Shown here piece after piece: positions 19,091 through 52,547 of a stretch of 64,000 nt of DNA (position 1 is its first letter; each line of letters opens with the position of its first letter). A program made the position numbers and the translations under genes. The stretch covers positions 44,092 through 108,091 of the forward strand of contig JBHORC010000024.1 of the NCBI GenBank assembly GCA_042408445.1, written 5' to 3'. This DNA comes from Chloroflexota bacterium. Its GTDB lineage: Bacteria; Chloroflexota; Limnocylindria; Limnocylindrales; CSP1-4. The notes beneath the pieces are model-generated. The model was not told where the DNA came from. It searched no databases and saw nothing but the letters and a program-made list of their open reading frames with translations.

Positions 19091-19624
19091 GTGGCCGAGC
19101 ACATCTCGCTCGTCGTCAACGGACAGCCGCGCGAGGGAGACGTCGAGCCGAGACGCCTCCTCGTCCAGTTCCTTCGCGAGGACCTGGAGCTGACGGGGAC
19201 CCATGTCGGCTGCGACACGAGCCAATGCGGCGCCTGCACGATCCAGGTCGACGGGCGGGCGATCAAGAGCTGCACGATGCTCGCCGTCCAGGCCGACGGG
19301 TCGACCCTCACGACGATCGAGGGGATGGCCGCCGGCGAGGGTGACCTCCACCCCCTCCAGGCGGCGTTCTGGGAGAAGCACGGCCTCCAGTGCGGCTTCT
19401 GCACGCCGGGGATGATCATGACCGCCGCCGACCTGCTGGCCCGCAGCCCGGACCCGACCGACGACGAGATCCGCCACGCGATCGAGGGCAACATCTGCCG
19501 CTGCACCGGCTACCACAACATCGTCGCGGCGATCCGCGAGGCGGCCCGGACGATGGCCGCCGGAGCCACCGCGCCGACCACCGTCGGAGCCGGAGCCGAC
19601 GGCGCGTCCGTCGCCCAGGCCTGA
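19091..19624 (+). CDS. coxS: Carbon monoxide dehydrogenase small subunit, [2Fe-2S]; form II cluster
   Basis: Two [2Fe-2S] cysteine clusters ([14 protein letters not shown]; CGFCTPGM...CRCTGY). GGAGG SD. GTG start. Confidence 0.85.
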
Positions 19625-19647
19625 GCCGAGAGCCAGAGGAGCTAGCG

Positions 19648-22059
19648 ATGGCAACCGACGTCCAGGACGTCCTCGGCGCACCGGTCAAGCGGGTCGAGGA
19701 TCCAAGGTTCATCACCGGCCAGGGCCGCTATCTCGACGACATCAAGCTCACCGGGATGACCCATCTGGCCATCCTCCGCAGCCCGTACGCCCACGCCAAC
19801 ATCCGCTCGGTCGACACGTCGGCGGCGAAGACGATGCCGGGCGTGCTAGCGGTGATCGTCGGCGCGGACATCCCGTACAACCCGCTGCCGATGGCCTGGC
19901 CGGCCGGCGGCGCGTCGGGGATCACGAACAACGTCAGCACGCCACGGGTGCTCGCGACGGACGGCGTCAAGTGGACCGGCGAGGGCGTCGCCGCAGTCGT
20001 GGCGGAGACGGAGGCCCAGGCGATCGACGCGCTGGAGCGGATCCAGGTCGACTGGGAGCCGCTGCCCGCGGTGGTCGACGCCGAGAAGGCGACCCAGCCG
20101 GGCGCACCTCAGCTCCACGACAACGCCCCGAACAACGAGGTGTTCACCTGGACCGTCGGTGACAAGGACGGGACCGACAAGGCGTTCGAGGGCGCCGAGG
20201 TCGTCGTCCGCCAGCGGCTCGTCAACCACCGCCTGATCCCGAACCCGATGGAGGTCCGGGGCGACATCGGCTGGTACAACCCGGGCACCGACGAGTACAC
20301 GATCTGGATGTCGAGCCAGACGCCGCACATCCAGCGGCTCCTCGTCGGGATCTTCACGATGGGGATCCCGGAGCACAAGCTCCGCTGCATCAGCCCCGAC
20401 GTCGGCGGCGCGTTCGGCTCGAAGATCTTCTGCTACGCCGACATGGCCCTCGTCCTGTTCGCGAGCAAGGCGATCGGCGGCCGGCCGGTGAAGTGGGTCG
20501 AGAGCCGGACGGAGAACTACCAGTCGACGATCCACGGCCGCGACCACATCACGTACGTCGAGGTGGCCGGCAAGCGGGACGGCGAGGTCACCGGGCTGCG
20601 CGTCAAGACGTACGCCAACCTCGGCGGCCGGCTGTCGACGATCGGCCCAGGCATCCCGACGACCCTCTACGGACGCGTCCTGTCCGGCTGCTACAAGATC
20701 CCGAACGTCTTCGCCGAGGTGACGGGCGTGTACACGAACACCACGTTCGTGGACGCGTATCGCGGCGCCGGCCGGCCGGAGGCGACCTACGTGGTCGAGC
20801 GGGCGATGGACCTGTTCGCCAACGAGATCGGGATGGACAAGGCGGCGATCCGCCGCAAGAACTTCATTCCGCCGGACGCGTTCCCGTACGACAACCCGTC
20901 CGGGCTCGGGACGGCCGTCAACGGCGAGAAGATCTACATCGACTCCGGCAACTACGAGCCGGCCCTGAACAAGGCGCTCATCGCCGCCGGGTACGAGAAC
21001 CTCGACGCCGCCCGGGCCGAGGCGAAGGGCCGCGGCAAGCTCCTCGGCATGGGCCTCAGCACCTACATCGAGGTGTGTGGCGTCGCGCCGTCGAAGTGGA
21101 TCGGCGCGGTCGGCGAGGGCTGGGGCGCCGCGATGTGGGAGTCGGCGAACGTCAAGGTCCACCTGACGGGCAAGATCATCGTCACGGTCGGCACCCAGCC
21201 CCAGGGCCAGGGCCACGAGACGACCTACAGCCAGATCATCAGCCACGAGCTCGGCGTTCCGATGGAGGACATCGTCATCCAGCACTCGGACACGCAGGGA
21301 ACCCCGTTCGGCTACGGCTCGTACGGCAGCCGGACGTCCTCGGTCGGCTCCACCGCTGCGATCAAGGCCGCCGACAAGGTCCGCGAGAAGGCGCGTCGCT
21401 ACGCGGCCCACATGCTCGAGGCCTCCCCGGACGACATCGAGGTCATCGGCGCGGAGTACCGGGTGAAGGGTTCGCCGGAGAAGAAGAAGACGCTCCAGGA
21501 GATCGCCTTCGCGCTGGACCTGGGGTTCAGCCTGCCAGCCGGCATGGAGCCGTATCTCGACGAGACGGCCTACTACGACACGCCGAACTGCACGTGGCCG
21601 TTCGGGACCCACATTGCGATCGTCGAGATCGACGAGGAGACCGGCGAGACCGAGCTGAAGCGGTACATCGCGGTCGACGACGTCGGCAAGAAGATCAACC
21701 CGCTCATCGTCGACGGCCAGCTCCACGGCGGGATCGCCCAGGGCGTCGGCCAGGCGCTGTGGGAGCAGGCGGTCTACAGCGACGACGGCCAGCTCCTGTC
21801 CGGCTCGATGATGGACTACGCCCTGCCGCGCGCGTCGTGGCTGCCGAACTTCGAGCTCGACGAGACGGTGACGCCGTCGCCCGTCAACCCGATCGGCGTG
21901 AAGGGCGTGGGCGAGGCCGGCTGCATCGCCTCGACCGCAGCCGTCGCGAACGCCGTCAACGACGCGCTCGCTCCGCTCGGGATCCGCCATCTCGACATGC
22001 CCTTCACCTCCCAGACGGTGTGGCGGGCGATCCAGTCCGCGAAGGGAGCCCAGGCATGA
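19648..22059 (+). CDS. coxL: Carbon monoxide dehydrogenase large subunit, molybdopterin; form II (AYRGAGR active-site loop)
   Basis: Xanthine dehydrogenase-family Mo subunit. Active-site loop VDAYRGAGRPEAT characteristic of form II/putative CODH. S-L-M gene order. Confidence 0.9.
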   Translation: MATDVQDVLGAPVKRVEDPRFITGQGRYLDDIKLTGMTHLAILRSPYAHANIRSVDTSAAKTMPGVLAVIVGADIPYNPLPMAWPAGGASGITNNVSTPRVLATDGVKWTGEGVAAVVAETEAQAIDALERIQVDWEPLPAVVDAEKATQPGAPQLHDNAPNNEVFTWTVGDKDGTDKAFEGAEVVVRQRLVNHRLIPNPMEVRGDIGWYNPGTDEYTIWMSSQTPHIQRLLVGIFTMGIPEHKLRCISPDVGGAFGSKIFCYADMALVLFASKAIGGRPVKWVESRTENYQSTIHGRDHITYVEVAGKRDGEVTGLRVKTYANLGGRLSTIGPGIPTTLYGRVLSGCYKIPNVFAEVTGVYTNTTFVDAYRGAGRPEATYVVERAMDLFANEIGMDKAAIRRKNFIPPDAFPYDNPSGLGTAVNGEKIYIDSGNYEPALNKALIAAGYENLDAARAEAKGRGKLLGMGLSTYIEVCGVAPSKWIGAVGEGWGAAMWESANVKVHLTGKIIVTVGTQPQGQGHETTYSQIISHELGVPMEDIVIQHSDTQGTPFGYGSYGSRTSSVGSTAAIKAADKVREKARRYAAHMLEASPDDIEVIGAEYRVKGSPEKKKTLQEIAFALDLGFSLPAGMEPYLDETAYYDTPNCTWPFGTHIAIVEIDEETGETELKRYIAVDDVGKKINPLIVDGQLHGGIAQGVGQALWEQAVYSDDGQLLSGSMMDYALPRASWLPNFELDETVTPSPVNPIGVKGVGEAGCIASTAAVANAVNDALAPLGIRHLDMPFTSQTVWRAIQSAKGAQA

Positions 22060-52027: not shown

Positions 52028-52106
52028 CCGGCACCCCAGCCCGCCGGTCGCCGTTCCTCCACGCCGCAACGGCTCGAACGGTCGCCCACGACCCACGGAG
52101 CGCCGC

Positions 52107-52547
52107 ATGAAGTTCGCCGGTACCGTCGACATCGCCGCGCCACGCGACCGCGTCTGGGCGTTCGTCATCGACCCGAACCAGGTCGGCAAGTGCGGGCCCG
52201 GCGTCGAATCGATCGAGGTCGTCGACGCGACGCACTTCAAGGCAACGGCGAAGGTCGGGATCGGGTTCATCAGCGCCCGGTTCGTCGTGAACATGGAGAT
52301 GGCGGATCAGCAGCCGCCCGATCGGGCGGTCATCAAGGCGCACGGCCAGGCGCCCGGGAGCGCAGTGGACGCGACCGCGTCGATGACCCTGAGCGACGGC
52401 CCGAGCGGCGGCACCCGCATGGACTGGGACGCTGACGTGATGATCTCCGGCAGCCTGGCATCGCTCGGCTCGCGGCTGATCGAAGGCACCGCCAACAAGA
52501 TGATCGGCCAGACGTTCGACTGCATGAAGGCGACCCTCGAGGCCTGA
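52107..52547 (+). CDS. coxG: CoxG-family SRPBCC protein (CODH-associated)
   Basis: approx. 146 aa, MKFAGTVDIAAPRDRVWAFVIDPNQVGKC... CoxG-like pattern. Downstream of the form I cluster. Confidence 0.75.
   Translation: MKFAGTVDIAAPRDRVWAFVIDPNQVGKCGPGVESIEVVDATHFKATAKVGIGFISARFVVNMEMADQQPPDRAVIKAHGQAPGSAVDATASMTLSDGPSGGTRMDWDADVMISGSLASLGSRLIEGTANKMIGQTFDCMKATLEA

Follow-up and report, generated by a model that had tools for sequence, protein, structure and literature searches.

The analysed stretch of soil Chloroflexota DNA, 64 kb in length and hereafter called the window, carries a form II coxS-L-M cluster and a form I coxM-S-L cluster, with an accessory (maturation) module, an ADP-heptose glycosylation operon lodged within that module and a short run of further genes and non-coding repeats lying between them (Table 1).

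Table 1 Features of the cox locus, in window positions.
Feature	Positions	Strand	Basis or remark
Form II coxS, small subunit (2Fe-2S)	19091-19624	+	Pfam Fer2_2, Fer2
Form II coxL-like molybdopterin protein, large subunit, AYRGAGR loop	19648-22059	+	motif at residue 370
Form II coxM, medium subunit (FAD)	22056-22913	+	Pfam FAD_binding_5, CO_deh_flav_C
MoCF-binding (MoeA/CinA-like) protein, first gene of accessory module	22960-24018	+	Pfam MoCF_biosynth
STAND NTPase with TPR repeats	24121-26538	+	Pfam NB-ARC, AAA_16, TPR_12
MoxR AAA+ ATPase, CoxD-like	26572-27453	+	Pfam AAA_5, AAA, AAA_3
VWA protein, CoxE-like	27552-28967	+	Pfam VWA_CoxE, E = 4.5e-61
XdhC-family maturation factor (XdhC_a)	28987-30111	+	Pfam XdhC_CoxI, XdhC_C
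Inserted ADP-heptose glycosylation operon, 12.9 kb	30112-42980	+	Pfam and NCBIfam matches
GT9	30258-31304	+	heptose operon
GT1	31301-32368	+	heptose operon
GT4-GmhA(SIS) fusion	32365-34350	+	heptose operon; SIS_2 domain
SDR (adh_short-type dehydrogenase)	34347-35198	+	heptose operon
GmhB-like HAD	35258-35875	+	heptose operon
HldE	35872-37356	+	heptose operon
GT9	37353-38519	+	heptose operon
GT2	38524-39336	+	heptose operon
Hypothetical	39368-39931	+	heptose operon
GT9	40132-40998	+	heptose operon
GT2	40995-42929	+	heptose operon
MocA-like (MobA/MocA-like) nucleotidyltransferase	42981-43625	+	Pfam NTP_transf_3
SAM-dependent methyltransferase, conserved last gene of accessory module	43630-44478	+	Pfam Methyltransf_23/25/11
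OsmC	44494-44994	+	Pfam match
ArsR-AHSA1 regulator	45075-45863	+	Pfam match
Repeat-structured non-coding stretch	45864-46399		palindromes and tandem repeat
Glyoxalase-fold protein, divergent from coxM	46400-46738	-	Pfam Glyoxalase
Conserved upstream region of form I operon	46739-47063		blastn
Form I coxM	47064-47933	+	Pfam match
Form I coxS	47949-48497	+	Pfam match
Form I coxL, AYRCSFR loop	48514-50910	+	Pfam match; motif at residue 377
CoxF counterpart with C-terminal YHS (Cys-rich, putative copper-binding)	50933-52027	+	Pfam XdhC_CoxI, XdhC_C, YHS
CoxG	52107-52547	+	Pfam COXG, E = 7e-37

Gene content of the two cox clusters and the accessory module

Gene calls and loop motifs bore out a previous sequence-only reading that had placed form II genes at 19.1-22.9 kb and form I genes at 47.1-50.9 kb. 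The AYRGAGR loop and the coxS-L-M order, both features of a form II (putative) CO dehydrogenase, were found in the first cluster, whose CoxS was 76-81% identical to its counterparts in the relatives L005, L007 and L018 and whose CoxL-like protein was 82-83% identical to those of L005 and L007. Against the NCBIfam model TIGR02416 the latter scored 741 bits, below the 991-bit cut-off, as expected for a non-form-I protein, and it shared 43% identity with the form I CoxL. The second CoxL contains VAYRCSFR at residue 377, matching the (A/S)YRCS(F/L)R loop with its copper-binding cysteine, scored 1211.7 bits against the TIGR02416 equivalog model (curated cut-off, 991 bits), is encoded in the order coxM-coxS-coxL, and was 73% identical to CoxL of Thermomicrobium roseum and 58% to that of Oligotropha carboxidovorans. 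By loop, model score and gene order it is assigned as a predicted form I aerobic Mo-Cu CO dehydrogenase. The spacer upstream of this operon was 67-83% identical (blastn) to the equivalent spacer in L168, L171, L172 and L173.

Directly 3' of form I coxL, where coxD-coxE-coxF would stand in the common organisation, only an XdhC-YHS fusion and coxG were found, as had been read from the sequence before. The fusion carries XdhC_CoxI and XdhC_C domains and is more similar to O. carboxidovorans CoxF (139 bits) than to CoxI (60 bits); its YHS domain recurs in 119 of its 120 best homologues and its Cys motif is conserved. On this similarity the fusion is the true CoxF counterpart. The XdhC-like gene after coxE, previously taken for coxF, is not the closest match, giving 68 bits against O. 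carboxidovorans CoxF.

The accessory module begins with the MoCF-binding gene, which lies directly 5' of coxD in L004, L005 and L014; weaker homologues recur in other phyla, close to the coxD-coxE genes of form II loci. The MoxR, VWA (35% identical to O. carboxidovorans CoxE) and XdhC genes do follow form II, as had been claimed; the MoCF-binding and STAND genes do not come after them but sit between coxM and coxD. A counterpart of the STAND NTPase was found only in L018 (41% identity), L004, L005 and L014 lacking it, and the MoCF-coxD junction holds other genes in L002, L007, L008 and L012, so that the NTPase is best regarded as variable cargo at this junction. Beyond the heptose operon the module continues with the MocA-like gene, whose best NCBIfam match was TIGR03310 (MocA), under the cut-off, and whose product is probably a molybdenum cofactor cytidylyltransferase; the earlier suggestion that it might be a cox accessory gene agrees with the XdhC-MocA-methyltransferase synteny conserved in relatives. 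The methyltransferase was 84-86% identical in L168 and L171. This gene and the minus-strand glyoxalase gene had been overlooked in the sequence-only reading, which had correctly listed heptose, MobA/MocA-like, OsmC and ArsR-AHSA1 genes between the clusters.

Affiliation of the CoxD/CoxE pair

Window CoxD has the MoxR AAA+ ATPase domain of a form-I-type CoxD and is 57% identical to the O. carboxidovorans protein. Its identity was 54-58% to form-I-linked and 60-72% to form-II-linked homologues, and about 30 of its 80 best homologues, from many phyla, are encoded 2-4 kb 3' of an AYRGAGR CoxL. In a neighbour-joining tree it did not group with CoxD proteins whose genes follow form I coxL: the split between form-I-linked sequences plus outgroup and window plus form-II-linked sequences had 86% bootstrap support, in a tree that included only four form-I-linked sequences, with a support of 29% for their own clade. 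The CoxD/CoxE pair thus appears to be of the kind usually found after form II coxSLM and, for that reason, not to be misplaced.

The copper-insertion genes had previously been considered to be on the wrong, form II, side of the locus, a view that does not fit the CoxD tree or the position of the CoxF counterpart beside form I. Its fuller version would be that coxD-E-F belong to form I and were stranded beside form II by a recent foreign island of 16 kb (30.2-46.7 kb). Such an origin would accord with O. carboxidovorans, other Proteobacteria and Deinococcus, in which form I coxL is followed, at once or after a short distance, by coxD and coxE together with an adjoining XdhC-family gene, and with the lack of heptose genes in relatives. 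However, the accessory module follows form II also in L005, L007 and L008, with form I upstream of form II in L007, and several properties of the intervening DNA, given below, likewise count against stranding, which we consider improbable.

The heptose operon and its junctions in relatives

The operon encodes GmhA, GmhB and HldE of the ADP-L-glycero-D-manno-heptose pathway. HldE domain II scored 198.6 bits (cut-off 181.5), with 376 bits for the full-length HldE model, under its 521-bit cut-off. An HldD epimerase was not found in the operon, a classical short-chain dehydrogenase occupying its place. About 45 metagenome contigs (41-74% GC) carry the cassette with its gene order preserved, none of them with cox genes nearby, and in one Limnocylindrales MAG it adjoins Glf and RecQ. 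The assembly of the window is sound, both island junctions being spanned by independent Logan contigs: two contigs of run SRR24490439 matched window positions 29817-36957 and 36942-48239 with 0 mismatches.

Among genomic-island features, only patchy presence at the same site was found. In the composition check proposed by the sequence-only reading, the operon did not look foreign: its tetranucleotide correlation was 0.987-0.993 (window mean, 0.987) and its codon-usage correlation 0.998. A domain search of the called genes revealed no integrase or transposase, confirming the earlier remark on integrases; the single ARAGORN tRNA hit was spurious, and no convincing direct repeat flanks the operon.

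The nearest relatives are Chloroflexota, and the source organism is itself a high-GC, Limnocylindrales-like member of this phylum rather than an actinobacterium. In six relatives (L003, L006, L011, L014, L168 and L171) XdhC (67-83% identical) is directly followed by the MocA-like and methyltransferase genes without a heptose operon, the XdhC-MocA spacer varying between a 4-bp overlap and about 100 bp; the two genes are also nearly adjacent in L018. Form I coxMSL comes after the accessory module in L014, L168, L171 and L018. In L168 and L171 the order is coxD/E-XdhC-MocA-methyltransferase, then, further on, coxMSL, with heptose genes absent, and L018 has the contiguous run coxSLM(II)-MoCF-STAND-coxD-coxE-XdhC-methyltransferase-coxMSL(I)-XdhC-YHS. 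The idea, put forward in the sequence-only reading, that an insertion broke up a once contiguous cox supercluster is thus upheld by XdhC-MocA adjacency in six relatives and by the predicted arrangement in L018. L176, the closest relative (XdhC 91% identical), is collinear with the window through the XdhC-GT9 left junction, the only one that its contig covers, and in the window the C-terminus of XdhC is intact there. Because L176 has the same left junction, the heptose operon appears to have been vertically inherited after one old event, rather than recently acquired. Vertical inheritance of the interrupted arrangement had been named beforehand as evidence against interruption by an island; L176 indeed has the same interrupted left junction, and the six relatives are uninterrupted. 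Recombination may, however, have replaced the cassette at a later stage, because island proteins of the window and L176 share just 60-80% identity, versus 91% for XdhC.

An ancestral interruption, with deletion of the operon in the relatives, would suit the operon's native-like composition and its presence at the same place in the window and L176. We find this improbable, since the adjacency of XdhC and MocA in six relatives would demand deletions both clean and repeated, and the roughly 45 contigs mentioned above, like a different Limnocylindrales MAG, carry the cassette independently of cox.

The island proposed earlier at 30.2-46.7 kb holds as an insertion for 30,112-42,980 but not for its right part. 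OsmC and AHSA1 follow the methyltransferase also in operon-free L171 (thioredoxin in L168), PFOR and DHODH lie beside ArsR-AHSA1 in L173, and a glyoxalase gene occupies the equivalent position in L168, L171, L172 and L173. OsmC and ArsR-AHSA1 are variable cargo common to some relatives. The 540-bp repeat-structured non-coding region described before was recovered, with three exact copies of the palindrome GTTGG-N7-CCAAC at a spacing of 72 bp (at 45898, 45970 and 46042) and a tandem repeat of 2 x 51 bp at 46156-46256; it had no Rfam match, and neither the rest of the window nor 2.28 Mb of fetched loci contained a further copy of the palindrome. The occurrence of OsmC/AHSA1 and glyoxalase in an operon-free relative, the native composition of the operon and an insertion common to the window and L176 all speak against stranding by a recent foreign island.

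A probably shared maturation module and comparison with known systems

We consider it likely that the locus is a mosaic, lineage-typical cox supercluster with an old, inherited heptose-operon insertion, in which form-II-type CoxD and CoxE are not misplaced and probably also serve form I. The supercluster of Limnocylindrales-like Chloroflexota would consist of three modules, namely form II coxSLM, a maturation module (MoCF-binding protein, CoxD-like MoxR, CoxE-like VWA, XdhC, MocA-like cytidylyltransferase and methyltransferase) and form I coxMSL with CoxF-YHS and CoxG, whose junctions would act as hot spots with cargo differing between relatives. The complete and widespread ADP-heptose operon would have landed in the short XdhC-MocA spacer in the lineage that gave rise to this organism and to its nearest known relative, and have been inherited since. 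Such an insertion is in itself an ordinary rearrangement.

The accessory module is probably a helper set shared by both enzymes. Joint use of CoxD and CoxE is suggested by L014, which keeps the module beside form I without form II, and the YHS domain fused to the CoxF-like factor of form I could supply copper. In L006 and L011 the module persists although no form I or form II enzyme is seen close by, so that gene proximity points only weakly to function. The absence of form I next to the module in these two relatives also fits an explanation in which the neighbours are functionally unrelated, form I being matured only by CoxF-YHS and housekeeping factors and CoxD/E, XdhC and MocA acting solely for form II or another molybdoenzyme, as do the T. 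roseum form I cluster, with XdhC-YHS alone nearby, and the form I operon of the window, preceded by a conserved upstream region of its own and with a minus-strand gene between it and the module. We regard this as rather unlikely, given that form I is the sole enzyme adjacent to the module in L014 and that the window has no other visible coxD/E pair; CoxD and CoxE are, moreover, reportedly required to build the Mo-S-Cu site in O. carboxidovorans (work of Pelzmann et al.). A second pair could lie beyond the 64-kb window.

A rule recognising 'functional' aerobic CO oxidisers in metagenomes by coxMSL with downstream coxDEF would wrongly reject abundant soil Chloroflexota, because their form I adjoins only CoxF-YHS and CoxG, with the MoxR/VWA pair elsewhere. 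Conversely, CoxD and CoxE commonly follow form II coxSLM, and their presence is therefore no evidence of copper-site assembly. The CoxF-YHS fusion is a concrete candidate copper donor. More tentatively, form I Mo-Cu assembly in Limnocylindrales/Thermomicrobia-type Chloroflexota, possibly also in Deinococcota, might differ from that in Oligotropha, with copper from the YHS domain (Cys-x-Met ... Cys-x3-Cys) fused to the CoxF factor and with a form-II-type CoxD/E pair carrying out the ATPase and VWA steps for both enzymes; 'form II accessory genes' would then be general Mo-hydroxylase maturases and not copper-specific.

Among known systems, ADP-heptose loci share with the operon the SIS (GmhA-type) domain, HAD phosphatase, bifunctional kinase/adenylyltransferase HldE and three GT9 heptosyltransferases; in the window GmhA is fused to GT4 and an HldD-type epimerase is missing. 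Lipopolysaccharide is not a known trait of the host lineage. Form II (BMS-type) coxSLM clusters with coxD-coxE in Acidobacteriota, Gemmatimonadota, Proteobacteria and Dehalococcoidia have the S-L-M order, the AYRGAGR loop and MoxR/VWA genes directly downstream, often with MoCF-binding protein, CoxG or XdhC. The window differs from them in the MoCF-binding and STAND genes between coxM and coxD and in the extension of the module by MocA and methyltransferase, then the form I operon. The form I cluster of O. (Afipia) carboxidovorans pHCG3 (coxMSLDEFG...I) resembles that of the window in coxM-S-L order, AYRCSFR loop and a CoxF-like XdhC protein and CoxG downstream. In contrast, the window lacks coxD/coxE after form I coxL, its only MoxR/VWA pair lying 20 kb upstream and belonging to a different CoxD clade, and its CoxF counterpart has a C-terminal YHS, absent from CoxF and CoxI of pHCG3. 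T. roseum, a demonstrated CO oxidiser of the same phylum-level lineage, is reported to have separate structural and accessory operons (PMC6776052). On its megaplasmid (NC_011961) no MoxR/VWA gene occurs within 14 kb of form I coxMSL, the 30 kb inspected contain neither a form II cluster nor an accessory module, the heptose operon is absent there and CoxG is not adjacent; like the window, it has an XdhC-YHS fusion after coxMSL and a MobA-like nucleotidyltransferase upstream.

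Gene content of the region and its non-coding stretches

Because the window has a G+C content of about 72%, genes were called by third-position GC bias and annotated with Pfam and NCBIfam. The two cox clusters recognized in the sequence-only reading, a coxSLM with the AYRGAGR loop (form II, residue 370 of CoxL) and a coxMSL with the AYRCSFR loop (form I, residue 377), are both present. The two CoxL proteins are 43% identical and scored 741 and 1212 bits, respectively, against the NCBIfam model of the aerobic CO dehydrogenase large subunit, only the form I protein passing the curated cut-off (991 bits). 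MoxR, VWA and XdhC genes do follow form II as that reading had it, but the MoCF-binding and STAND genes, which it placed after coxF, both precede coxD. Its inventory of 30.2-46.7 kb was accurate for the genes named and overlooked the methyltransferase and the glyoxalase. As it had also noted, only the XdhC-YHS fusion and CoxG lie downstream of form I, and neither an integrase nor a transposase domain occurs among the called genes.

Features of the cox region, in window coordinates
Feature	Position	Strand	Annotation
coxS (form II)	19091-19624	+	Pfam/NCBIfam
coxL (form II)	19648-22059	+	Pfam/NCBIfam
coxM (form II)	22056-22913	+	Pfam/NCBIfam
MoCF-binding protein	22960-24018	+	Pfam/NCBIfam
STAND/TPR NTPase	24121-26538	+	Pfam/NCBIfam
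MoxR ATPase (CoxD-like)	26572-27453	+	Pfam/NCBIfam
VWA_CoxE protein	27552-28967	+	Pfam/NCBIfam
XdhC	28987-30111	+	Pfam/NCBIfam
Glycosylation genes (n=11)	30258-42929	+	Pfam/NCBIfam
MobA/MocA-like nucleotidyltransferase	42981-43625	+	Pfam/NCBIfam
Methyltransferase	43630-44478	+	Pfam/NCBIfam
OsmC	44494-44994	+	Pfam/NCBIfam
ArsR-AHSA1 regulator	45075-45863	+	Pfam/NCBIfam
Non-coding, 536 bp	45864-46399		
Glyoxalase-fold gene	46400-46738	-	Pfam/NCBIfam
coxM (form I)	47064-47933	+	Pfam/NCBIfam
coxS (form I)	47949-48497	+	Pfam/NCBIfam
coxL (form I)	48514-50910	+	Pfam/NCBIfam
XdhC-YHS fusion	50933-52027	+	Pfam/NCBIfam
CoxG	52107-52547	+	Pfam/NCBIfam

Among species-representative genomes, the best matches of the CoxD-like protein (76-92% identity) were MAGs labelled Candidatus Limnocylindrales, Chloroflexota or "uncultured Chloroflexia", and the XdhC-YHS homologues carry the same names. 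These relatives rule out an actinobacterium, for which the 72% GC could be mistaken. An exact-protein look-up of the XdhC adjoining coxE gave no match, probably owing to another start codon in the collection. Two contigs of an independent Logan assembly (run SRR24490439) reproduce window positions 29817-36957 and 36942-48239 with no mismatches; since the two borders of the glycosylation block fall within them, the arrangement is no binning or scaffolding artefact.

Just downstream of the ArsR-AHSA1 gene, three exact GTTGG-N7-CCAAC palindromes are spaced by exactly 72 bp (45898-46058), followed in the same non-coding stretch by a 51-bp unit repeated twice in tandem (46156-46256, 90% match) and by a GC-rich hairpin (~46350-46385) that adjoins the glyoxalase gene at its 3' end. 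The palindrome has no other copy in the window (0.56 expected by chance) and none in 2.28 Mb of related loci; no link to cox regulation was therefore drawn, and the three copies may act as operator sites or form a small local repeat. Across 17-55 kb, Rfam gave no match at E <= 0.1. Between the glyoxalase gene and form I coxM, a 325-bp spacer (46739-47063) is 67-83% conserved at the DNA level in four relatives and is probably the form I operon's promoter and regulatory region.

Insertion of a heptose operon into the accessory module

All window proteins were mapped to the surroundings of CoxD homologues (80 loci) and of close XdhC-YHS homologues (comparison loci are designated L). The contiguous coxSLM-accessory-coxMSL arrangement foreseen in the sequence-only reading was found in L018, where coxS-L-M (AYRGAGR), MoCF, STAND, coxD, coxE, XdhC, methyltransferase, coxM-S-L (AYRCSFR) and XdhC-YHS form one unbroken run. 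L014, devoid of form II genes, has the order MoCF, coxD, coxE, XdhC, MocA, methyltransferase, form I coxMSL, XdhC-YHS and CoxG. The window's downstream genes recur in L168 (GCA_038245515.1) and L171; in both, XdhC is directly followed by MocA and the methyltransferase, then by a few small genes and, as in the window, a minus-strand glyoxalase before coxMSL. XdhC and MocA are thus neighbours in six relatives (L003, L006, L011, L014, L168 and L171), separated by spacers from a 4-bp overlap to ~100 bp. This adjacency and the intact XdhC and MocA proteins at the window's junctions show that the glycosylation block (30,112-42,980) is an insertion into a short spacer. As judged from its neighbours, the MocA-like gene is one of the accessory module's regular members, in agreement with the earlier suggestion that it may be a cox accessory gene. 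L011 (4257-6729) and L006 (14279-19131) keep coxD, coxE, XdhC, MocA and the methyltransferase, L011 also CoxG, with no form I coxMSL or XdhC-YHS genes at the site, which suggests that the enzyme was lost in particular lineages while the helper genes stayed.

The block carries a cassette (GT9, GT1, GT4/SIS, SDR, HAD, HldE, GT9, GT2 and, in some, a second GT2) that is collinear in ~45 metagenome contigs of 41-74% G+C, none of which has cox genes near it; in another Limnocylindrales MAG it is flanked by a Glf/glycosyltransferase pair on one side and RecQ on the other. This ADP-heptose/GT9 operon is anchored by a fusion of a GT4 glycosyltransferase with a GmhA-type SIS domain (window 32365-34350), as it is in loci L084-L160, L176 and L177; the contigs that carry it, of 41-74% G+C, include Limnocylindrales MAGs. 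No HldD epimerase was found in the operon, and Limnocylindrales are not a lineage known for lipopolysaccharide. In L176, whose XdhC is closer to that of the window (91% identity) than those of L171 (83%), L168 (81%) or L002 (74%), XdhC precedes the same cassette, and the DNA stays collinear across the spacer from the 3' end of XdhC into GT9. The shared junction dates a single acquisition to before the window organism and L176 diverged, with vertical inheritance afterwards. The cassette itself has since changed, as L176 has neither the hypothetical gene nor the third GT9.

The compositional comparison proposed for the island did not set the block apart: its tetranucleotide profile correlates with that of the whole window at 0.987-0.993 (window mean 0.987) and its codon usage at 0.998 with the cox genes and likewise with the remaining genes. 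Domain annotation, a tRNA scan and a repeat search detected neither an integrase or transposase nor a tRNA or convincing flanking repeat at the block; the search for target-site duplications or inverted repeats at its borders gave only GT9 paralogue similarity and chance GC-rich matches. The single tRNA scan match, inside coxS, has a 4-base anticodon and was regarded as spurious.

The proposed interruption of an ancestral supercluster is therefore right in outline, but the event is confined to the heptose operon, old and vertically inherited. The OsmC and ArsR-AHSA1 genes lie outside it, because L171 has OsmC and an AHSA1 gene at the same place without heptose genes, which speaks against a 16-kb glycosylation/stress island as one unit. 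This place holds a thioredoxin in L168, and in L173 PFOR and DHODH lie between ArsR-AHSA1 and the glyoxalase. The MoCF/coxD junction is likewise variable, being empty in L004, L005 and L014, occupied by other genes in L002, L007, L008 and L012, and by STAND in the window and, as the only homologue at this junction (41% identity), in L018. The window's STAND NTPase (805 aa) combines NB-ARC/AAA_16 with TPR_12 repeats; no DNA-binding domain was detected in it. Conserved modules with hot spots between them make the region a mosaic, and the heptose insertion is one of several indels.

Affiliation of CoxD with form II

In about 30 of the 80 best CoxD homologues the gene lies 2-4 kb downstream of an AYRGAGR CoxL, in the order coxS-L-M-coxD-coxE, in Acidobacteriota, Gemmatimonadota, Alpha- and Betaproteobacteria, Myxococcota, Verrucomicrobiota, Dormibacterota and Dehalococcoidia. 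The window CoxD is 60-72% identical to these form-II-linked proteins, versus 54-58% to form-I-linked ones (O. carboxidovorans, Rhizobium jaguaris, Bradyrhizobium, Roseivivax and Deinococcus). A neighbour-joining tree (numpy code, 200 bootstraps) separated four form-I-linked CoxD and a methanol-dehydrogenase-linked outgroup from the window and all form-II-linked CoxD (86% bootstrap). The module also follows form II in L005, L007, L008 and L018, with a form I operon upstream of form II in L007. The accessory genes are not misplaced beside form II, contrary to the view that they had ended up on the wrong side. In the literature consulted, coxDEF is regarded as a form I trait and form II as lacking a consensus order for its accessory cox genes; the frequent coxSLM-coxD-coxE arrangement is therefore under-reported, though unsurprising. 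On a Mycobacterium dioxanotrophicus plasmid (L166, 5140-9242), an NDMA-dependent methanol dehydrogenase has next to it a MoxR/VWA pair with 50% identity to the window CoxD. Given this pair and the below-cut-off matches of window CoxD and CoxE to the NCBIfam MadB and MadC models, the chaperone pair is not specific to molybdenum enzymes.

The CoxF-YHS fusion and a probably shared maturation module

Against O. carboxidovorans CoxF, the XdhC-YHS protein scored 139 bits (39% identity; 60 bits against CoxI) and the XdhC adjoining coxE, earlier labelled coxF, 68 bits. By similarity and position directly after form I coxL, the fusion is the better CoxF counterpart; form I thus retains its own CoxF-like factor together with CoxG, and its side is missing a MoxR/VWA pair only. 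In the Chloroflexota copies, that of T. roseum included, the CoxF-like XdhC protein beside form I coxL has a C-terminal YHS/TRASH-type Cys motif; the loci set beside the window for this comparison were L081 (16426-17436) and L165 (5464-6525). YHS is present in 119 of the 120 best homologues, and DPVCGM...FCSxGC is conserved in every Chloroflexota copy retrieved; on a Deinococcus plasmid, a form-I-linked XdhC ends in a degenerate version. A literature search for YHS with XdhC found no paper on the fusion.

MocA converts the molybdenum cofactor into its cytosine dinucleotide form, proteins of the XdhC type hold, sulfurate and insert the cofactor, and the MoxR/VWA pair remodels the apo-enzyme. 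On this family knowledge, the window's MocA-like, XdhC and MoxR/VWA proteins would take the same steps. By synteny, one module probably serves the two enzymes, because L014 keeps it where form I is the sole enzyme alongside. We hypothesize that CoxF-YHS adds a form-I-specific copper step, the YHS domain being a candidate copper donor. Follow-up interest is limited to this fusion and the probably shared module, the clusters being otherwise of known kinds.

CoxF and CoxI of O. carboxidovorans have no YHS, unlike the CoxF-like protein of the window. T. roseum, which oxidises CO, has structural and accessory genes described as separate operons (PMC6776052); it was absent among the 30 listed plasmid matches for CoxD, and the location of its coxD and coxE is taken from that paper. 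Its megaplasmid has no MoxR or VWA gene within 14 kb either side of the form I genes and resembles the window in that an XdhC with a C-terminal YHS comes after coxMSL (CoxL 73% identical, AYRCSFR).
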